Shown here piece by piece: positions 9,433 through 42,692 of a DNA stretch of 64,000 nucleotides; position 1 is the stretch's first letter; the number at the start of each line of letters is the position of its first letter. A model generated the notes under the pieces. The model saw only the letters and a list, made by a program, of their open reading frames with translations, did not search any database and had not been told where the DNA came from. The stretch is from Candidatus Competibacteraceae bacterium (GTDB lineage: Bacteria; Pseudomonadota; Gammaproteobacteria; Competibacterales; Competibacteraceae), in NCBI GenBank assembly GCA_046347625.1, contig JAXMFU010000001.1, forward strand, positions 671,512 to 735,511. The letters are read 5' to 3'. The position numbers and the translations under genes are program-made.

Positions 9433-9504
9433 GTAGGAGCGAGCTGGCTCGTGAATTCGGTCGGTTGCCACCGTGCGCCCCTTCGCGAGCCAGCTCGCTC
9501 CTAC
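9433..9504. repeat. REP-like palindrome, family A: GTAGGAGCGAGC ... GCTCGCTCCTAC, with a loop of about 34 nt.
   Basis: A perfect 19-nt inverted repeat. The same arm sequence is seen at 3725-3750 and 31295-31367. Confidence 0.7.
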
Positions 9505-10255: not shown

Positions 10256-11046
10256 TGGCTATTATTCTTGCAATCGCCAATCAAAAGGGTGGGGTGGGAA
10301 AAACGACCACGGCGGTCAATCTTGCCGCCTGTCTGGCGGCTTCTAAACTCAAGCCGCGTGTCCTGCTGATCGACCTGGACCCCCAGGGCAATGCCACCAT
10401 GGGCTGTGGCATCGATAAGCGTGTCGCCAAGGCGACCAGCTATGAAGTCCTGCTGCGGCAGACAGCCGTGCGGGACGCCTTACAGTGTTCGGAATCGGCC
10501 GCTATTCAGGTACTGCCCGCCAATATCGATCTGACCGGCGCGGAAGTGGCCCTGCTGGATGCCGACAAAGGTCAGCACCGGCTGCGCGAAGTGCTCGAGC
10601 CGCTGCACCATGAGTTCGACTATATTCTGATCGATTGCCCGCCATCGCTGAGCATGTTGACGGTGAACGCCTTGACCGCCGCCCAGGGAGTCATCATTCC
10701 CATTCAATGCGAGTACTATGCGCTCGAGGGATTGTCGGCTTTGCTGGATACCATCGAAAAAGTGCGTCGGACCACCAACCCGCGCCTGCGCATCGAGGGC
10801 CTGCTGCGCACCATGTTCGATCCACGCAACCGGCTGGCGAACGAGGTCTCGACCCAATTGCTGGAGCACTTCGGCAGCATCGTCTATAAGACCTTGATTC
10901 CCCGTAATGTCCGCTTGGCCGAAGCGCCCAGCCATGGACAGCCGGTGATTACTTACGATAAAAGCTCCAAGGGTGCCGAGAGTTATCTGGAACTGGCCAG
11001 AGAATTACAACAACGGGTACGCAAGCAACTGCGGGCTGTAAGCTGA
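10255..11046 (+). CDS. parA: Chromosome partitioning ATPase ParA.
   Basis: The N-terminus IANQKGGVGKTTTAVNLAA is the deviant Walker A motif. Confidence 0.9.
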   Translation: MAIILAIANQKGGVGKTTTAVNLAACLAASKLKPRVLLIDLDPQGNATMGCGIDKRVAKATSYEVLLRQTAVRDALQCSESAAIQVLPANIDLTGAEVALLDADKGQHRLREVLEPLHHEFDYILIDCPPSLSMLTVNALTAAQGVIIPIQCEYYALEGLSALLDTIEKVRRTTNPRLRIEGLLRTMFDPRNRLANEVSTQLLEHFGSIVYKTLIPRNVRLAEAPSHGQPVITYDKSSKGAESYLELARELQQRVRKQLRAVS

Positions 11047-11926: not shown

Positions 11927-12080
11927 GGCATTTTTCGCATTGACCTATGTAGTGTAAGTCTTTATAATATCGAACATACTTTTCAGTGTCAGTGGCATAA
12001 CAGTTCCGGTAGCCGAGCAAAAACAATGGTTGCAAGGCCGTTAATACAAGGGATGGAGCCACCCTTAGAATGGGTAGATA

Positions 12081-13240
<1,160 letters not shown>

Positions 13241-14660: not shown

Positions 14661-16202
14661 ATGCAACTTAATCCATCTGAAATCAGCGAACTGATTCGAC
14701 AGCGCATCGATAAATTCGAAGTGCGCGCCGAGGCGCGCAACGAAGGCACGATCGTCAGTTTGGCCGATGGTATTGCCCGTATCCATGGCCTGGATGATGC
14801 CATGCAGGGTGAAATGCTGGAGTTTCCCTCCAACATTTTCGGCCTGGCGCTGAACCTGGAGCGTGATTCGGTCGGCGCGGTGATTCTGGGCGATTACGAG
14901 AAGCTGTCCGAAGGTGATACGGTCAAATGCACCGGCCGTATTCTCGAGGTGCCCGTCGGTGATGCCCTGATCGGTCGGGTCGTCAACTCGCTGGGTCAAG
15001 CCATCGACGGCAAGGGGCCGATCGAGACCCCTTACAGCTCCCCGATCGAGAAAATCGCGCCGGGCGTGATCGAGCGGCAATCGGTCAGCCAGCCGGTACA
15101 AACCGGTCTCAAGGCCATCGACTCGATGGTGCCCATCGGGCGCGGTCAGCGCGAATTGATCATCGGTGACCGCCAGACCGGCAAGACCGCCGTCGCCATC
15201 GATACCATTATCAATCAGAAAGGCGGCGACATTATCTGTATCTATGTCGCTATCGGTCAGAAGAATTCTTCCATCGCCGGCGTCGTGCGCAAGCTGGAAG
15301 AATATGGTGCCATGGCGCATACCATCGTCGTGGCCGCCAGTGCATCCGACCATGCCGCCATGCAGTATATCGCTCCCTATTCCGGCTGCGCGATGGGCGA
15401 GTACTTCCGCGACCGGGGCCGGGATGCGCTGATCATCTACGATGACCTGACCAAGCAAGCCTGGGCTTACCGCCAAGTCTCTCTGCTGCTCAAGCGGCCG
15501 CCGGGACGTGAAGCCTATCCGGGCGATGTATTCTATCTCCATTCCCGCCTGCTGGAGCGGGCCTCCCGCATCAACGCCGATGAAGTGGAACGCCTGACCA
15601 ATGGGGAAGTTAAAGGTAGAACCGGGTCGCTGACCGCCTTGCCGATCATCGAAACCCAGGCGGGTGACGTCTCGGCCTTCGTGCCGACCAACGTGATTTC
15701 CATCACCGACGGCCAGATCTATCTGGAAACCGACCTGTTCAATGCCGGTATCCGTCCGGCCATCAACCCCGGCCTGTCGGTATCGCGGGTCGGTGGCGCG
15801 GCCCAGACCAAGATCGTCAAGAAACTTGGTGGTGGTGTCCGCCTGGCTCTGGCGCAATATCGCGAGTTGGCGGCATTCGCCCAGTTCGCCTCGGATTTGG
15901 ACGAAGCCACCCGCAAGCAGTTGGAACGCGGCCAGCGGGTAACCGAACTGCTCAAGCAAAAGCAGTATGCGCCGATGAGCGTCGGTGAAATGGCAATCGA
16001 TCTGTTCGCGGTCGACCGGGGTTATCTGGACGATCTGCCGCTCAACAAGATCGGTGATTTCGAGGCGGCGCTGCTGTCCCACATGCGGGGCAATTACAAG
16101 GACTTGATGGCCAAGATCGACCAGACTGGCGATTTCAACGACGAAATCGAGTCGGCCTTCAAGAAAGCGCTGGACGAGTTCAAAGCCAACTATGTCGGGT
16201 AA
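14661..16202 (+). CDS. atpA: F1 ATP synthase subunit alpha.
   Basis: Walker A motif GDRQTGKT; 513 aa. Confidence 0.95.
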
Positions 16203-18979: not shown

Positions 18980-20350
18980 ATGCCGCTAGCGGTCGTTATT
19001 CTTGCCGCCGGCAAGGGCAAGCGGATGGTATCCGACTTGCCCAAGGTGCTCCACCGGGTCGGTGGCAAGCCTATGCTGGTTCACGTCATCGAAACAGCGC
19101 ACAGCCTGGAAGCCGAGCGCTGTTTTGTCGTTTATGGCCATGGCGGTGAAGCGGTCAAGGCTGCCTTTGCCGGGCTGCCGGGAATCGACTGGGTGGAACA
19201 GGCCCAACAGTTAGGGACCGGTCATGCGGTAGGCCAGGCTTTGCCAAGCATCCCCGATCAGGATATCGTGCTGGTGCTCTATGGCGATGTTCCGCTGATC
19301 CAGGCCGAGACGCTGCGACCGCTGCTGGAGAGCGCCCATAAGGGCTATCTGGGCTTGCTGACGGTAGAACTGGACAATCCCACCGGTTATGGCCGGATTA
19401 TTCGTGATGCTACAGGCCAAGTGATTCGGAACGTCGAAGAAAAAGATGCGGCTGCCGAGCAACGGCTGATTCATGAGGTCAACACCGGCATTGTGGCGGT
19501 TCAGGCGCAACACCTGAAGGCCTGGGTGGCCGCACTGAAGAACGATAATTCGCAGGGTGAGTATTACCTGACGGACGTGATCGAACTGGCGGTGGGTGAA
19601 GGTATCGGCGTGGAAGCCTTCAGAGCCTATGCGCCGGAAGAAGTGCAGGGTGTCAACGATCGGCTGCAACTGGCCCAGTTGGAGCGCTATTATCAACGCC
19701 GCCAGGTGGAAGTGCTGATGTTGAGCGGCGTTACGTTGCTGGACCCGGCGCGGGTGGATATCCGCGGTACGGTAGTCGCGGGGCGGGATGTCGTGATCGA
19801 TGTCAATGTGATCCTGGAAGGCGAAATACGCCTGGGAGACCGGGTGATTATCGGTCCGTATTGCGTGCTGCGCGATGCCGTATTAGGCGACGATACCGAA
19901 GTGTTATCCCATTGCCGGATCGAGGAGGCACAGACCGGCAAGGGTGTGCATGTTGGCCCCTTTGCCCGCTTGCGGCCGGGTGCCCGGATTGCCGATGGGG
20001 CCAGAATCGGTAATTTCGTTGAAATAAAACAAGCTCTGATCGGGCAGGATTCCAAGGTCAATCATCTCACCTATATCGGCGATGCTGAAATCGGCGCCGA
20101 TGTCAATGTCGGCGCAGGTACGATTACCTGCAATTACGATGGCGTCAACAAACATAAAACGATAATAGAAGATCGAGTATTCGTCGGTTCCAATACGGCC
20201 CTGGTAGCACCGGTCAAAATAGGGGAGGGGGCGACTCTCGGTGCGGGTTCCACTATTACCAAAGATGTGCCGGCGGACAGTCTATCGCTGACCCGTGCGC
20301 CGCAGAAAACGATTACCGATTGGCAGCGGCCGAGTAAGAAGTCTTCTTGA
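18980..20350 (+). CDS. glmU: Bifunctional UDP-N-acetylglucosamine pyrophosphorylase / glucosamine-1-phosphate N-acetyltransferase.
   Basis: N-terminus LAAGKGKRM, with C-terminal hexapeptide repeats. Sits downstream of the atp operon. Confidence 0.9.
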
Positions 20351-20445
20351 CAAGCGGACAGTCCTTGCCAACCATATTAGCGCTCGGAAGCCAGGCGTTG
20401 GAAGGTTTTACCAGCGTGATCGCATCTGAGATAAAGGGCCAATAA

Positions 20446-21093
20446 GTGCGCGCCTGCCTTCGTGAGCCAATTTCGGAGATCGCCGATGCCGCTCGTTATT
20501 TGGATGCTGCTGTTTCTGCTCACTTAGCCGGCGAAGTAATGTTAGCTGAGCGTTTAATCGTGCTTGCGGATATATCTGTAATACGTGACTGGACAGAATC
20601 CATTTGGGGTAAGAACAGCCCATATGTTCAATACCGTGCGCTAGATGGCTTACCAGGCATTCCATTGGATGAGCGTGTTAAAGCACGTATGCCCAACGCA
20701 TTGGAGAGGCATCAACTGCATGACAGGGATGGCTATCATTGTAGGTTCTGCGGCATTCCTGTTATCCGGCGTGAGATCCGCATACGAATCATGCAGCACT
20801 ATCCAAATGCACTCAGATGGGGTAAGCACAACTCAGAGCAACACGCGGCATTCCAAGCTATGTGGGCGCAATATGATCATGTTGTACCGCATGCTAGGGG
20901 CGGCACTAATTCGCTTGATAACGTAGTGGTTTCCTGCGCTCCATGCAACTTTGGACGCATGAGCTACACGCTGGCTGAGGTCGGGTTAAGCAATCCATTT
21001 GAGCGGGAGCCTGTTAGGTCCTTGTGGGATGGTCTTGAGCGCTTTGCATCAACACCAGCTAACAATTCATTCAAGCCGGCGGAGCTAGCGTAG
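20446..21093 (+). CDS. HNH-endonuclease-domain protein. The N-terminal domain of about 100 aa is of unknown function.
   Basis: Motifs HCRFCG ... DHVVPHARGG ... NVVVSCAPCN. Local GC content looks lower than in the flanking genes. Confidence 0.65.
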   Translation: MRACLREPISEIADAARYLDAAVSAHLAGEVMLAERLIVLADISVIRDWTESIWGKNSPYVQYRALDGLPGIPLDERVKARMPNALERHQLHDRDGYHCRFCGIPVIRREIRIRIMQHYPNALRWGKHNSEQHAAFQAMWAQYDHVVPHARGGTNSLDNVVVSCAPCNFGRMSYTLAEVGLSNPFEREPVRSLWDGLERFASTPANNSFKPAELA

Positions 21094-21097
21094 TCAG

Positions 21098-21162
21098 GTA
21101 GGGTGGGCACGGCCCACCTTGATTCGTCCCCACGGTAAAAATGTGGGCCATGCCCACCCTAC
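21098..21162. repeat. REP-like inverted pair, family B: GTAGGGTGGGCA(C/T)GGCCCACC ... GGTGGGCCATGCCCACCCTAC.
   Basis: Two inverted copies of about 21 nt separated by roughly 25 nt. The same element occurs at 26318-26384. Confidence 0.7.
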
Positions 21163-21180
21163 AACTACGGGTTCTCGTGA

Positions 21181-21669
21181 GTGATAATGAAAGCCTCGGT
21201 TTACATCGAGTCATCGGTAATTAGCTACTGCGTAGCACGTACCAGCCAAAACTTGATAGTAGCCGCTCGCCAAGCGATCACACAGGAGTGGTGGAACTGG
21301 GGTATCAAGCGGTACACATGTTATATTTCAGCGGTAGTAGAGCGGGAAATATCGGCAGGCGATCCAGAAGCGGCCAAACAAAGGCAGAAATTGATTGTTG
21401 AGATACCCAGCTTGCAGGTTAACGAAGACGCTCAATATCTGACCCAAGGTTTATTATCGGCTCAACTTTTACCCATTGGCAGCGTTGATGATGCGCTTCA
21501 TATTGCAATAGCTTCGGTTCATGGCATGGATTACCTATTGACCTGGAATTTTAAGCACATCAACAATGCTGAGACGAAGGGCAAGATTATGACTTTTGTT
21601 GAAGAATCAGGCTATCGCTGCCCGGTGCTGTGTTCACCCGAAGAATTAGGAGGTTCATTCGATGATTGA
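21181..21669 (+). CDS. PIN-domain-like protein; a possible toxin or nuclease with degenerate acidic residues.
   Basis: The C-terminal DDALHIAIA ... LLTWNFKHI resembles the last PIN helices. The first and last acidic positions appear to be E and N instead of D. Confidence 0.4.
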   Translation: MIMKASVYIESSVISYCVARTSQNLIVAARQAITQEWWNWGIKRYTCYISAVVEREISAGDPEAAKQRQKLIVEIPSLQVNEDAQYLTQGLLSAQLLPIGSVDDALHIAIASVHGMDYLLTWNFKHINNAETKGKIMTFVEESGYRCPVLCSPEELGGSFDD

Positions 21670-21838
21670 AGATCCGATTGTAAAAGAGATTCACAAAATC
21701 AGGCAGGAGTACGCTGCGAAGTTTGGCTTCGATGTGGCGGCGATCTGCGCCGATTACAGAGAGCGTGAAAAAAAATCCAAGCTTAAGTTAGTATCCTGCC
21801 CCCCTAAACGTATAGCGGAATCCGCAGAAAGCGCATAA
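21662..21838 (+). CDS. Small overlapping ORF of about 58 aa (MIEDPIVKEIHKIRQEYAAKFGFD...); a possible partner protein of the PIN-like gene.
   Basis: The 8-nt ATGATTGA overlap with the preceding stop suggests translational coupling. It is below the 60-aa threshold of the ORF track. Confidence 0.3.
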   Translation: MIEDPIVKEIHKIRQEYAAKFGFDVAAICADYREREKKSKLKLVSCPPKRIAESAESA

Positions 21839-22113
21839 ACTCGTGTAGCCAGTGTAGCCGTGTGGTTCGTTCCAGCCCGAAAATAGGGTTGTTATAAGGC
21901 TGGCAGATTGGCGAGGTAGCCAACTGAACTGGGATTTTGATGCCGGTTAAAATCCTGCCACCTAGAGGCATGGTGAAGCCTATAACCTGCCCAGTCCGAA
22001 AGGTTGATCACCCCGTAGGATAAGAGCTTGGGTAGAAGGCCCGGTAACGGAAGCGGGAGTCCCAATCAGAGGTCGGCGGTAAAGTTGTACCGATCACCCT
22101 GGGGACTGGTCAA

Positions 22114-22566
22114 GTGACTATGGTAAACAAGCCCGGAAGGGTCAACGTGATCGACTCAGACTATTATTGGAAAAAACAGGGAATATTGCCTTGGGAAAAT
22201 ATCCACGACTGGATAGACAAACCAAATACGCTTTGGAATTTAGGACAAGGAAGCTACTCCGGCCTTAACAACCGTGTGGCGATTGGGCAAGAGAACGGTA
22301 CATCGCTGTATCTTATTTCCGTCGAACGCCTGAACCTGTTGGTCGGTCGTAAAGCACCCGAATACCCTGATTCCAAACGCGCCGTGCGAGGCGAGTTCGT
22401 TTATCGAGGTACGAACTATCGAATGGACGTAACCGACCCGGTAATCGAGCGGAACTATTTATTCCGGGCTGATGGTCAATACGACATTCTTCGTCCTGTA
22501 CTGTGTATTAGCCTTGGCGATCTTTACGAAGGCTATTTCTACAAACTCATAGCGGCGGTCTTGTAG
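22114..22566 (+). CDS. Hypothetical protein, 150 aa.
   Basis: ORF inside the AT-richer insertion; no motif recognised. Confidence 0.4.
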   Translation: MTMVNKPGRVNVIDSDYYWKKQGILPWENIHDWIDKPNTLWNLGQGSYSGLNNRVAIGQENGTSLYLISVERLNLLVGRKAPEYPDSKRAVRGEFVYRGTNYRMDVTDPVIERNYLFRADGQYDILRPVLCISLGDLYEGYFYKLIAAVL

Positions 22567-22580
22567 CCGGAGCGGTTCGC

Positions 22581-22970
22581 TTGAATTCTATGTTATACAC
22601 TATTGGCCATTCAAACCACGAGATAACTGCATTCATCGGGCTACTGCAACAGCACGGTATCACAGCTCTCGGTGATGTGAGGTCGCACCCCTACAGCCGT
22701 TACGTGCCGCATTACTCCCGCGAACCCTTGAAGGCTACATTGGCCAACGCTGGTATTGCCTATGTATTTCTCGGTAAACAGCTAGGCGCTCGGAGTGACA
22801 ATCCTGCTTGCTATAACAAAGGCAGGGTTCAATATGACCGATTGGCGCAAGAAGAAAGTTTCTCAGAAGGAATCATGCGCGTGATGCATGGGATGAATCG
22901 GCACTGTATCGCACTGATGTGCGCCGAGAAAGATCCCATCGCGTGTCATCGAGCAATGTCTCTCAACTAG
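22581..22970 (+). CDS. DUF488-family protein.
   Basis: N-terminal TIGHSNH followed by ...YVFLGKQLG... and a C-terminal CAEKDPIACHR, the pattern of DUF488. Confidence 0.6.
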   Translation: MNSMLYTIGHSNHEITAFIGLLQQHGITALGDVRSHPYSRYVPHYSREPLKATLANAGIAYVFLGKQLGARSDNPACYNKGRVQYDRLAQEESFSEGIMRVMHGMNRHCIALMCAEKDPIACHRAMSLN

Positions 22971-23287
22971 CCGGTTTCACCAAGAAAGATGACTTGGGGT
23001 TTTTTCTCCATGAAATCTGCAAGATCGATTACGTTCATTTGCCAGAGTTGGCGCCAACCCAAGACATCCTTGATACTTATAAAAAGAAAGGCGGTGATTG
23101 GGTAATTTACGAGAAACAGTTTTTAGCGTTATTGGAGGCACGCCGTATAGAGGAGACAATAGATAAAAGCTTAGTCGATGGCTGCTGCCTACTATGCAGT
23201 GAGGCCAATTCTGAGCATTGTCATAGACGGTTGGTAGCAGAGTATCTTCGTGAAAAATGGGGCAATATCGAAATTCAGCACTTATAA
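22919..23287 (+). CDS. Second, N-terminally incomplete DUF488 copy; a possible fragment or frameshifted duplication.
   Basis: YVHLPELAP ... LLCSEANSEHCHRRLVAEYL matches only the C-terminal half of DUF488. It overlaps the previous ORF in a different frame. Confidence 0.4.
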   Translation: MRRERSHRVSSSNVSQLAGFTKKDDLGFFLHEICKIDYVHLPELAPTQDILDTYKKKGGDWVIYEKQFLALLEARRIEETIDKSLVDGCCLLCSEANSEHCHRRLVAEYLREKWGNIEIQHL

Positions 23288-23356
23288 AGCCGGGTAAAGC
23301 GGGCACAGGAGGTGCCCGACATATACCGCCACAAATTGGGAAAGCATCGGGCAACA

Positions 23357-25429
23357 CTAAAGGCCGATTAGCTGATACATAATACTCCGCAGCTTGGCCG
23401 GTGGTACGGGTTTATGCAGCAGAGGATAACCGCTGGCCTGGGCTTCGCGCAGCCGATCGGGTGCGGTATCGCCGGTGATTACCAACACCGGAACCCGCCG
23501 GCCCAGGACAGCCTGCAGGGCCGCCGCCACATTCAGACCGGAGGCCTGACCGCGCAGCCGGTAATCCACAATCAACAGTTCCGGCGGCTGTGTGCTGTTC
23601 CCTGTCTTTTTTCGGGCCTCTTCCAGCGAGCCGGCCGTGGTGACCTGACAACCCCAGCTCTGAAGCAGACTCTTCATGGCCGCCAGGATGGTGGTATCGT
23701 CATCCAGGACCAGTACCCGGCGGTCTTTCAGTTCCAAAGTCGGCAATGTCGATGCCGGCAGTGAGGTCTGGCGAGGCGCCTTTCGGGCCAAAGGAACGGT
23801 AATCGCAAAGCAGGAGCCATGCCCCAGCCGCGAGCGGACCGTAATCTCATGCCCTAACAGTGCGGCTAAGCGCTTGACGATAGCTAGTCCTAACCCCAGT
23901 CCCTGGCGCCGGTCCCGCTCCGGATTACCCAGTTGATAGAATTCCTGAAAGATATCATCGAGCTTACTAGCGGGAATACCGGAGCCGGTATCATAGATCT
24001 CGAGGCGCAGCCGGGTGCCGCGCTGACGGGCGGCCAACAGTACCCGACCTTCGAGAGTATAGCGCAGGGCATTGGCGACTAGATTTCTGAGCATCCGCTC
24101 CAGCATGGCGGCGTCGCTCTGCACGATCGCTTGACAGGGACGCACGCGCAGGCTGTTGCCGTTTTCCTGGGCCATGGGTTGATACTCGGCTTCCAGCCGT
24201 TGGAACAGTCCAGCCATTGCGACCGGCCCTATCTTGGGTTGGACCACGCCGGCATCCAGTTTGGAAATATCCAACAGGGCATTGAGCATGGTATCGACCG
24301 CGTCGATCGCATCCTCGATCGGTTTGATCAGCGGTTCCGTCTCGGCACTACGCACCTTTGCCGCCAGGGCGGCGAAGAATAAACCGAGGGCATGAGTGGG
24401 TTGACGCAGATCGTGACTGGCGGTGGCCAGAAACCGGGTCTTGGCCGTATTGGCCTGCTCCGCCACCTGACGGGCCGCCTCCAGCGCTTGTTCCCGGCGC
24501 TTCCGGTCGCTGATATTGGCATAAGTCAATACCCGACCGCCGTCCGGCATGGCATTTTGCAAAATTTCGATGACGACGCCGTCCGAGCGTCGATACTCGA
24601 GCTGTTTTCCCGAAATGCCGGACAGCGGGGGGTCAGCGCTCCGCAATACGGTGTCCAGGGATTGACGACCGTCCGGTTGGAGGTTGTCAAGACCGAGCAG
24701 GTCCAGAAAATGTTGATTCCACATCCGCAGCCGGCCTTCTCGATCGACTACGCTGATGCCCTGCTGCATATTTTGCAGCGTAGTCTCCAACAGGGCGGAT
24801 TTTTCCTCGGTCTCCCGGCGCAGAGCGATATTCTCGAATCGAAGTCGCAGCGATTCGTTGAGCACCCGGTGTACGTTGCTGAGATAAATCAAATTGATCA
24901 CCAGATTGAGAGCGACCAGAATGGCCAGCGCCATGCCCACTTTGCCGCCGCGTAACCACAATATTGCAGTCAGAGATGTCAGGATCGGTACGGCAAACGT
25001 GATAAAGGCCGGCGGATAGGATGCAAAAGCTACGGTGCCACCGGCACAGATCACATTCAAAATAAGGGTAATCGCAATCAGGCTTGCCGGTTGAGCCGGA
25101 TCCAGGAACAGGATGGGCGCTACCCCCCAGATAAGGCCAAAGATCCCCGTCAGGACCGCGGTTATCAAGCCCCACCGGGGCGCCGCTTCGGGAGAGGGCG
25201 GCTGTTGCCGATAGGCCCGGATGAGAAGCATGCGAATAAGCGCCGTACTATAGAGGGCGGCAAGCCAGCCAAGCAGACTGTCATGGGGCGCGGTGTCCCA
25301 CAGGATGAAAAACAACACGGCGCCGGTAATGATATGGGCGATAAAGATGGCGATATAAGCCGGGCGAAACAGGGTACGGATATGCTCGGCCTGAATTTCG
25401 GCCTGGGGAATCCGGTGGTCTGGGGTCAT
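23357..25429 (-). CDS. Hybrid sensor histidine kinase / response regulator: a membrane N-terminal domain, then PAS, HisKA, HATPase and REC domains.
   Basis: Multiple transmembrane helices. H-box SHDLRQP. HATPase motif DTGSGIP. C-terminal receiver domain with VLVLDDD. Confidence 0.85.
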   Translation of the reverse strand: MTPDHRIPQAEIQAEHIRTLFRPAYIAIFIAHIITGAVLFFILWDTAPHDSLLGWLAALYSTALIRMLLIRAYRQQPPSPEAAPRWGLITAVLTGIFGLIWGVAPILFLDPAQPASLIAITLILNVICAGGTVAFASYPPAFITFAVPILTSLTAILWLRGGKVGMALAILVALNLVINLIYLSNVHRVLNESLRLRFENIALRRETEEKSALLETTLQNMQQGISVVDREGRLRMWNQHFLDLLGLDNLQPDGRQSLDTVLRSADPPLSGISGKQLEYRRSDGVVIEILQNAMPDGGRVLTYANISDRKRREQALEAARQVAEQANTAKTRFLATASHDLRQPTHALGLFFAALAAKVRSAETEPLIKPIEDAIDAVDTMLNALLDISKLDAGVVQPKIGPVAMAGLFQRLEAEYQPMAQENGNSLRVRPCQAIVQSDAAMLERMLRNLVANALRYTLEGRVLLAARQRGTRLRLEIYDTGSGIPASKLDDIFQEFYQLGNPERDRRQGLGLGLAIVKRLAALLGHEITVRSRLGHGSCFAITVPLARKAPRQTSLPASTLPTLELKDRRVLVLDDDTTILAAMKSLLQSWGCQVTTAGSLEEARKKTGNSTQPPELLIVDYRLRGQASGLNVAAALQAVLGRRVPVLVITGDTAPDRLREAQASGYPLLHKPVPPAKLRSIMYQLIGL

Positions 25430-26317: not shown

Positions 26318-26384
26318 GTAGGGTGGGCATGGCCCACCTTCGGTAGCGAAATCAAAAGGATAAGGTGGGCCATGCCCACCCTAC
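26318..26384. repeat. REP-like inverted pair, family B (second copy).
   Basis: Same arm sequences as at 21098-21162. Confidence 0.7.
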
Positions 26385-26777
26385 CTGGTGCTTTTAAACC
26401 CGAAACTTATTAAGATTTGGTATAAGGTCCCGGCTGGGCCGGTTGAACCCATCTGGCGGCCTCTGCATTATGATCGAGTGTTAGCTGGGAGTGCAGGCGT
26501 CCTTACCGGTTTGAGGGTGGCAAGGCTGCTGCGATGTTGGGTTACGGCGCGCCGGCCCGTTCCTGCTATCTCCAACCGTTCAGCGAGCGGCGCGCCTAAC
26601 CCAACCTACCGTACCGGTTTTAATTACACGCTGCTGTGAATTTAACTGGATTACCTGGCATGGTCCTAATACAATTGACCGTTTAATGTAGATCGGCCGG
26701 GTAGGATGCCAGGTCTATGATTCCCCTCTGATGACTCCCTGCATCACTGCAATCTCTAACTCAAAGAGAGGTAAAAA

Positions 26778-31186: not shown

Positions 31187-31294
31187 GGATTTCGGACCTC
31201 GGAACGATCAGGTAGGCAATACGGCTTTGAGTTTACTACTTTTCCGAGATTTGGGTTACCTGTGGACCGATTGCCTGCACATCATTCCCTGGCT

Positions 31295-31367
31295 GTAGGA
31301 GCGAGCTTGCTCGCGAAGGGAACGGGCAATGCCAACCCGGCCGGTTCACAAGCAAGCTCGCTCCTAC
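31295..31367. repeat. REP-like palindrome, family A.
   Basis: gtaggagcgagcttgctcg ... caagctcgctcctac. Confidence 0.7.
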
Positions 31368-32898: not shown

Positions 32899-32921
32899 GA
32901 AAACCTCTTTTCAGGAGGTTT
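32899..32921 (-). terminator. Hairpin plus T-run immediately downstream of the tRNA-like pair.
   Basis: Read on the minus strand: aaacctcctgaaaagaggttttc. Confidence 0.4.
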
Positions 32922-32988
32922 GGAGCGGGAATCGAACCCGCGTACATCGATTTGCAGTCGATTGCTCAACCAACTGAGCTATCCAAGG
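32917..32988 (-). tRNA. tRNA-like sequence with a GCA anticodon (Cys?). D-, anticodon and T-arms are canonical, but the first two acceptor pairs are mismatched and no CCA is encoded.
   Basis: GGATAGCTCAGTTGGTTGAGCA ATCGA CTGCAAA TCGAT GTAC GCGGGTTCGATTCCCGC. The acceptor pairs 5 of 7 positions. Confidence 0.4.
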
Positions 32989-33059
32989 AGATGAACATGG
33001 GAATCGAACCCATGACCCCGGGAGCTTCGTCCCGTGCTCTACCACTGAGCTAGATCACA
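32989..33059 (-). tRNA. tRNA-like sequence (Phe-like, GAA?). It has a 6-nt anticodon loop and an imperfect acceptor stem; it is probably a pseudo-tRNA.
   Basis: TAGCTCAGTGGTAGAGCA CGGGA CGAAGC TCCCG GGGTC ATGGGTTCGATTCCCAT. It abuts the next tRNA-like sequence with no spacer. Confidence 0.3.
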
Positions 33060-42574: not shown

Positions 42575-42692
42575 TACTTGGCGGTAGGCTCCAGGGATAT
42601 AGAGGCCGTAGGATTGTACAACAGCATAGGCGTAGCCTGGATGCAGCGGAGCTTGCGGAGCGCAATCCAGGTTGCCGCCCAAATCCTATAAT

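Follow-up and report, generated by a model that had tools for sequence, protein, structure and literature searches.

Gene content and composition of the segment downstream of glmU

The stretch of Competibacteraceae DNA analyzed here (64 kb, hereafter the window) contains a low-GC variable segment of 3006 bp (positions 20351–23356) between glmU and a hybrid sensor histidine kinase gene, running from the stop codon of one to the stop codon of the other, in which only a PIN-domain module is syntenic with related genomes. Its six open reading frames (ORFs) all lie on one strand and comprise an HNH endonuclease gene, a VapC-type PIN-domain gene with its small partner ORF, and the pieces of three genes of a DuOB/DUF488 operon. 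A palindrome resembling repetitive extragenic palindromic (REP) elements separates the HNH gene from the PIN gene. Every ORF listed in the first-pass annotation of this DNA was found again in the segment, although several of them are interpreted differently below.

The composition of the segment departs clearly from that of its surroundings. Its GC content is 49.3%, against 58.4% for the remainder of the window, and it is the lowest of all 3-kb stretches within the 64 kb (mean 57.8%, standard deviation 3.0; runner-up 53.1%). The GC content at third codon positions (GC3) is 0.46–0.54 in the six ORFs and 0.64–0.74 in atpA, atpG, atpD, atpC, glmU and the histidine kinase, phasin and ETF-QO genes. 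The lower GC that had been noticed by eye directly after glmU is therefore borne out by both the windowed GC and the GC3 check. On the left, the segment is bordered by glmU (18980–20350, plus strand; Pfam NTP_transf_3 and Hexapep), the last gene of the conserved atpA-atpG-atpD-atpC-glmU block, which runs on the plus strand up to 20350. On the right lies the histidine kinase gene (23357–25429, minus strand; Pfam PAS, HisKA, HATPase_c and Response_reg), which is convergent to the segment and host-like in composition (GC3 0.67), its stop codon marking the segment end. The second-lowest 3-kb stretch, the runner-up mentioned above, begins at about 33450, beside a region (32917–33059) holding a tRNA-Cys and an adjoining second ARAGORN call with undetermined anticodon.

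The non-coding parts of the segment yielded little. Scans for promoters and terminators gave the same counts as in shuffled sequences, and an Rfam scan of 20200–23500 at E ≤ 1 returned chance-level matches only, the one named "mir-1889" corresponding to the REP palindrome. Separating the PIN module from the DuOB remnant is a 287-bp spacer (21860–22146), which showed no similarity to any of the fetched loci, no Rfam match and, with an RNA fold z-score of -1.6 for 21840–22146, no sign of a structured RNA.

Synteny breaks at the 3' end of glmU

The window could be compared with five relatives, named here by their locus numbers. L003 (88.5% DNA identity to the window) and L055 (78%) came from a genome scan, L085 (90%) was found via the PIN protein, L004 (67% glmU protein identity) is a Competibacteraceae metagenome-assembled genome (MAG), and L093 is a JGI contig with a flank of only about 400 bp after glmU. 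DNA synteny with L003, L085, L055 and L093 extends over 9–11 kb and stops no more than 11 bp past the glmU stop codon. Beyond this point each genome carries different DNA. L055 has an ABC transporter and a methylcrotonyl-CoA carboxylase operon, L003 has small ORFs and PIN modules followed by HIRAN, ADH, GNAT and ferrochelatase genes, L085 has a 162-aa ORF and two PIN modules, and L093 begins a further, different AT-rich ORF. The downstream genes of the relatives, apart from the PIN module, were found nowhere in the 64-kb window and, reciprocally, neither the HNH gene nor the DuOB/DUF488 genes occur in the glmU locus of any relative. The abrupt end of synteny, with different DNA beyond it, indicates that the 3' end of glmU is a hypervariable junction and rearrangement point in this clade. 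Thus, the segment is foreign in composition and, except for the PIN module, absent from relatives, which supports part of the first-pass interpretation; its description as a single insertion did not hold, since the PIN module is common to L085 and L003 at this site, whereas the HNH gene and the DuOB/DUF488 remnant are lineage-specific.

A broken DuOB/DUF488 operon

The 3' part of the segment (22147–23322, the homology to the nearest known copy, L091, reaching 23322) corresponds to a single three-gene operon known as the candidate defense system PDC-M45, in which none of the genes A, B and C is complete. The ORF previously listed as an unknown 150-aa protein (22114–22566) proved to be the 5'-truncated DuOB gene, PDC-M45A, by both the Pfam and PADLOC profiles (22147–22566, plus strand; Pfam DuOB positions 76–210 of 210; PADLOC PDC-M45A positions 83–223 of 230, E 6e-43). 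Likewise, the two DUF488 segments, taken before as parts of a possibly new system, are pieces of two different PDC-M45 genes fused by a deletion. The first is the DUF488 gene, PDC-M45B, of which codons 1–126 of 204 remain (22581–22954, plus strand; PADLOC positions 4–127 of 204, E 1e-59), its frame running on to a stop at 22970. The second is the DUF488-N3a gene, PDC-M45C, represented by codons 34–144 without its own start codon (22955–23287, plus strand, within a listed ORF of 22919–23287; PADLOC positions 33–144 of 145, E 1e-54, and a Pfam DUF488-N3a match).

The lesions were mapped by tblastn and DNA alignment to the copies in L083, L084 and L091. DuOB homology to all three starts at 22144–22147, so that the first ~93 codons (239-aa L083 numbering; ~81 on the 227-aa form) are lost, plus anything upstream, and a search of all frames upstream of 22147, including the spacer, did not recover the DuOB N-terminus. 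The missing part includes the CFANSRK...C.AGKEW region, conserved in 14 of the 14 full-length homologs aligned. Near its 3' end, a Tyr codon of DuOB (TAC/TAT) has become a premature TAG at 22564. Gene B starts with TTG in the window and with ATG in the intact copies, the A/B overlap consequently reading TTGA here and ATGA elsewhere. Finally, a deletion at 22954|22955, of 339 bp relative to L083 or 333 bp relative to L091, removed codons 1–33 and the start codon of gene C and joins codon 126 of B out of frame to codon 34 of C, B ending four codons past the junction. The gene order A-B-C on one strand is nevertheless retained as in L083, L084 and L092. Judged from these lesions, the remnant is a non-functional leftover of one PDC-M45 operon.

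Intact operons encode a DuOB protein of 227–239 aa (227 aa being typical of full-length homologs and almost all falling within 225–233 aa), a DUF488 protein of 204 aa and a DUF488-N3a protein of 125–144 aa, the genes overlapping. In L083, a relative, the operon adjoins an IS481 element; in Nitrosococcus wardiae (L084, 1–3386) it adjoins the BREX genes BrxB and BrxC; and on the Allochromatium tepidum plasmid pAt1 (L092, 1–6897) it lies between csx16/cas1 and csm6. These BREX and type III CRISPR accessory settings are consistent with a defense role of the intact triads. A scan of IMG/VR for DuOB relatives found none. Burroughs and Aravind reportedly placed DUF488 in the rhodanese-phosphatase superfamily in 2023 and predicted a role in nucleic-acid end processing. 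The intact PDC-M45 is predicted to combine a nucleic-acid-binding OB-fold protein with two DUF488 enzymes of the Cys-His-Arg type; the operon of the window has lost both its promoter-proximal end and its first OB domain.

The nearest copy, L091, shares 89–92% DNA identity with the remnant; its source metagenome also contains relatives of the window genome. It is broken as well, by other lesions: its DuOB gene is interrupted at ~375–505 by an AT-rich insertion of about 130 bp resembling a miniature inverted-repeat transposable element (MITE), and its DUF488-N3a gene has a frameshift near codon 80, gene B being intact. That the two copies were broken in different ways suggests that, in this lineage, the system is decaying neutrally. 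The terminal inverted repeats of the MITE-like insertion are CAGCAATTCCCGG ... CCGGGAATCGCTG. Two near-identical copies decaying independently in related wastewater bacteria hint that the system was dispensable or costly there.

The PIN module

The PIN module spans 21165–21859. It consists of a VapC-type PIN-domain gene of 160 codons (21187–21669, plus strand, with an alternative GTG start at 21181) and a partner ORF of 58 codons (21662–21838, plus strand), the ATG start of the latter overlapping the stop codon of the former (ATGA). No ORF precedes the PIN gene in the stretch that separates it from the REP element. The AlphaFold model of the PIN protein has a predicted local distance difference test (pLDDT) score of 90.7, and its best Foldseek matches are VapC11 of M. 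tuberculosis and the Shigella VapC (E 2e-5, probability 1.0, TM-score 0.6–0.7). Pfam PIN matches the protein of the window only at a sub-threshold E of 0.056, but its paralog in L003 passes. Residues E8, E54 and D102 are invariant in homologs, which form more than 1640 clusters and are named VapC family toxin by NCBI.

In all loci inspected, the PIN gene has a small ORF behind it, namely in both modules of L085, both modules of L003 and the Thiothrix loci L086 and L087. Directly 3' of the PIN gene in L085, L003, L086 and L087, as well as after the L003 paralog, this ORF encodes a 56–61 aa homolog of the 58-aa protein; after the L085 PIN paralog, the 61-aa ORF in the same position is only 19% identical. 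With a cutoff of E ≤ 1e-3, the family of the 58-aa ORF comprises 984 clusters formed at 50% identity, and the window member has no Pfam, NCBIfam or PADLOC match. Some relatives (P0363–P0370, P0375 and P0398) are 113–181 aa long with two matching stretches, corresponding to a tandem-duplicated small domain. The pair is regarded as a putative toxin-first VapC-type addiction module, apparently intact, in which the 58-aa protein would neutralize the PIN nuclease, the toxin being set free once the labile partner is lost. As a widespread PIN and downstream small-protein pair, it draws attention to a partner family for which there is no curated model.

At the DNA level, the module is 92% identical to that of L085 over 699 bp and 94% identical to that of L003 over 379 bp, in both cases at the same site. 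These identities are close to the divergence of the core genes (90% and 88.5% identity, respectively) and, by this comparison, the module probably occupied the site before the window genome, L085 and L003 diverged from their common ancestor. In L003, PIN modules stand in tandem at 11942–12965, where a PIN paralog (43% identity) has a small partner ORF of its own behind it; a deletion there joins the 3' end of the partner ORF of the paralog to a 5'-truncated PIN gene of the window type and its small ORF. This fusion is a further decay event at the same hotspot.

The HNH gene

The first gene of the segment encodes a full-length HNH endonuclease of 215 aa (20446–21093, plus strand; Pfam HNH/HNH_5, the HNH match scoring 27.6 bits with a cutoff of 21.4), which is 100% identical to a protein from a Candidatus Competibacteraceae bacterium MAG in NCBI. 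It covers the full length of 24 homologs, in which the columns of the CxxC...DH...N...CxxC motif are invariant; residues C99, C102, D144, H145, N159, C164, C167 and N168 are invariant or nearly so across 25 homologs. Accordingly, the catalytic His and Asn and the Zn-binding CxxC pairs of a beta-beta-alpha-metal nuclease are all present. In the structural model, a confident one (pLDDT 83), a helical region at the N-terminus is followed by the HNH domain, and the only fold matches were weak ones to HNH domains. PDB sequence searches with the PIN and HNH profiles found nothing close.

The HNH family includes 1882 homologous clusters and is highly conserved and very broadly distributed, with 63–73% identity across cyanobacteria, Ralstonia, Dadabacteria, Thalassospira and others, a pattern that fits frequent transfer under strong constraint. 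Homologs lie, for instance, on an integrative and conjugative element (ICE) that encodes an integrase and TraI, in the accessory region of a plasmid and beside an Mrr-like nuclease; their neighbors vary from one context to the next, and no conserved partner gene was seen in the five contexts inspected. PADLOC recognized no system from the HNH protein, the PIN protein, the 58-aa ORF or the neighbors of the HNH homologs, with only a marginal PtuB match for the HNH protein (E 0.05). We regard it as the product of a solitary McrA-like gene, with a predicted nuclease activity; most likely it acts on DNA by itself, in a selfish or a restriction-like role.

The sizes of these two families do not support a novelty of the PIN and HNH proteins. 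Of the "new or degraded" system suggested in the first-pass annotation, the second adjective stands, the DuOB/DUF488 triad being broken in all three genes; the first does not, the parts matching known families. The proposal that the genes were horizontally acquired and of nuclease or addiction type fared better, in agreement with the low GC, the absence from relatives and the HNH and PIN family assignments.

REP elements and other repeats

The REP-like palindrome of the segment (21098–21162) consists of GTAGGGTGGGCAyGGCCCACCTT ... and an inverted copy, with 23-nt arms that are 91% complementary. A second copy is found outside the segment, at 26318–26387, between the phasin-like and ETF-QO genes, and the element is a REP type native to this genome. 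The short-read Logan contigs L001 and L002 both end at 21098–21162 because the palindrome recurs. In L085, a different palindrome occupies the equivalent place upstream of the PIN module. REP elements are possibly involved in cassette turnover at the 3' site of glmU.

Two other repeat families were noted. The first, GCGTAGCCTGGATGCAGCGGAGCTTGCGGAGCGCAATCCAGG, is present in the window at 42630–42673, in L085 at 10688–10731 and in L003 at 12980–13023, 15485–15533 and 20568–20617; it comes right after the PIN and small-ORF module in L085 and L003, with tandem CAGCGTAGC units ahead of it in L085. The homology of the window to the PIN module ends inside degenerate CAGCGTAGC units (~21845–21859). 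The other is a third REP-type family, GTAGGAGCGAGCTTGCTCGCGAA..., located in the window at 9433–9504 and 31294–31367 and in L091 at 61–137; its presence in both points to a related organism as the source of L091.

Origin of the segment

Taken together, these observations make it probable that the glmU-kinase junction is hypervariable and that small low-GC cassettes, acquired by horizontal gene transfer, have accumulated and decayed there, forming neither one island nor a working new system. The segment is a mosaic of parts of different ages (the HNH gene, the REP element, the PIN pair and the PDC-M45 debris), and the direction and order of their acquisition are inferred. Every component is of a known kind and the locus is, in that sense, ordinary, with no new system in it.

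Several points weigh against this interpretation. The comparison rests on five relatives only, and the right boundary lacks the confirmation of an empty site, no relative having glmU adjoining the kinase gene; indeed, such a site was not found among the 160 fetched loci. The toxin-antitoxin function of the PIN pair is a prediction, for a partner that lies downstream and has no recognizable DNA-binding domain, unlike classical VapB. PDC-M45 itself is only a candidate defense system. In addition, the fragments of the operon are still open over 112–150 codons and share ~74% aa identity with intact homologs, so that the decay is recent and some residual activity of the fragments is possible.

The variable junction could also be read more boldly, as a dedicated hotspot 3' of glmU in this Competibacteraceae clade, at which REP-type palindromes instead of integrases would drive the gain and loss of small defense and addiction cassettes, anchored by a toxin-first PIN module with a partner from an undescribed antitoxin family. 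We consider this rather unlikely.

A single recent genomic island, which would have brought all six ORFs together as a working defense or addiction island, is the first of four rival explanations and is very improbable. The low GC is uniform over the whole 3 kb, the ORFs share one strand, and intact DuOB/DUF488 triads do occur in defense islands elsewhere. However, the usual signatures of mobility were missing: all ORFs of the segment are assigned to families other than integrases or transposases, neither a recombinase nor an attachment site was recognized, no direct or inverted repeats bound the segment apart from the REP element, and no tRNA lies within 9 kb, the nearest being at 32.9 kb. 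Moreover, relatives have nothing but the PIN module in common with the window at the site, with a divergence close to that of the core, the HNH gene and the triad being absent there; a REP element of the host lies inside the segment; and the triad carries four or more lesions.

Even less credible is the idea that the truncated DuOB and the fused DUF488 genes represent a derived, minimal working system, made of a single-OB protein and a short DUF488 enzyme. The fragments are open without internal stops, they keep the C-x(n)-CHR motifs, and a 139-aa product, 99% identical, is annotated in an NCBI Competibacteraceae MAG. Nevertheless, gene C has no start codon and is out of frame past the junction, after which B ends within four codons, and DuOB lacks the N-terminal region common to all 14 full-length homologs aligned; the length of full-length homologs in general hardly varies. 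The different damage to L091 also points to neutral decay rather than to a streamlined system. In annotations, the "hypothetical" protein of 139–150 aa and both DUF488 ORFs should carry a pseudogene label, as fragments of a single DuOB/DUF488/DUF488-N3a operon, and defense-system scanners should not score the locus as a system.

An insertion or deletion that displaced glmS, at a Tn7-type attachment site linked to glmS, is more doubtful again. Among gammaproteobacterial glmU loci with 3 kb or more of flank, taken from one genome per species, glmS was found within 1.2 kb after glmU in 45/70, confirming the general adjacency of these genes, and no glmS is present anywhere in the 64-kb window. Yet the four closest relatives with enough flank (L003, L085, L055 and L004) all lack glmS after glmU and have unrelated genes in its place. 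The gene was therefore not displaced here and its absence is older than the present content, contrary to the earlier view of the segment as filling the slot normally taken by glmS. Nor does the segment lie directly 3' of a glmS gene, as a Tn7-type insertion would, and no ORF of the segment is left over that could be a transposition gene.

Finally, ancient core genes of the lineage with an atypical composition are the least probable source of the segment: the PIN module does occur at the same site in three related genomes, but the HNH and DuOB/DUF488 genes are absent from the loci of all relatives and have their closest homologs scattered over phyla, plasmids and ICEs, and GC3 is 0.15–0.25 below that of the flanking genes.

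The practical value of the variable junction lies mainly in annotation hygiene, and it opens no long-standing question.

Comparison with known systems

The PIN pair resembles VapBC modules in the predicted PIN fold, the best structural matches of which are VapC toxins, and in the small overlapping partner gene. In contrast to VapB, which is normally encoded upstream of the toxin, the partner lies downstream and carries no recognizable DNA-binding domain (AbrB, ribbon-helix-helix, PhD or helix-turn-helix). The acidic positions of the toxin itself agree in part, E8, E54 and D102 being conserved but with Glu at the first position and a nearly invariant Asn (N121) at the fourth, instead of Asp, and the window copy stays under the Pfam PIN cutoff.

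The HNH protein is comparable to the stand-alone HNH nucleases of the McrA-like/COG1403 group, with which it shares the beta-beta-alpha-metal motif and two CxxC pairs, as well as a weak structural similarity to EcoKMcrA and to the HNH domains of Cas9 and Cap5; JGI labels its homologs as McrA. It differs in a helical N-terminal region of about 100 residues without a PDB match, and it has no conserved partner genes.

The remnant agrees with PDC-M45 (Pfam PF22557, PF04343 and PF22751) in that three genes are matched by the hidden Markov models A, B and C, with order and strand as in the intact operons of L083, L084 and pAt1. The difference is that A is missing profile positions 1–82 and is also cut short at its end, B covers its profile only up to 127 of 204, and C only from 33 of 145. 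PDC systems are candidates predicted by "guilt-by-embedding" (bioRxiv 10.1101/2024.01.29.577857).

As a whole, the locus differs from the defense or accessory hotspots described at core-gene junctions by having no integrase or recognizable attachment site, by its tiny (3 kb) and partly dead cargo, and by REP-type palindromes, rather than the ends of mobile elements, flanking the cassettes. It resembles these hotspots in that the 3' end of glmU carries a differing low-GC cargo in each of five related genomes.

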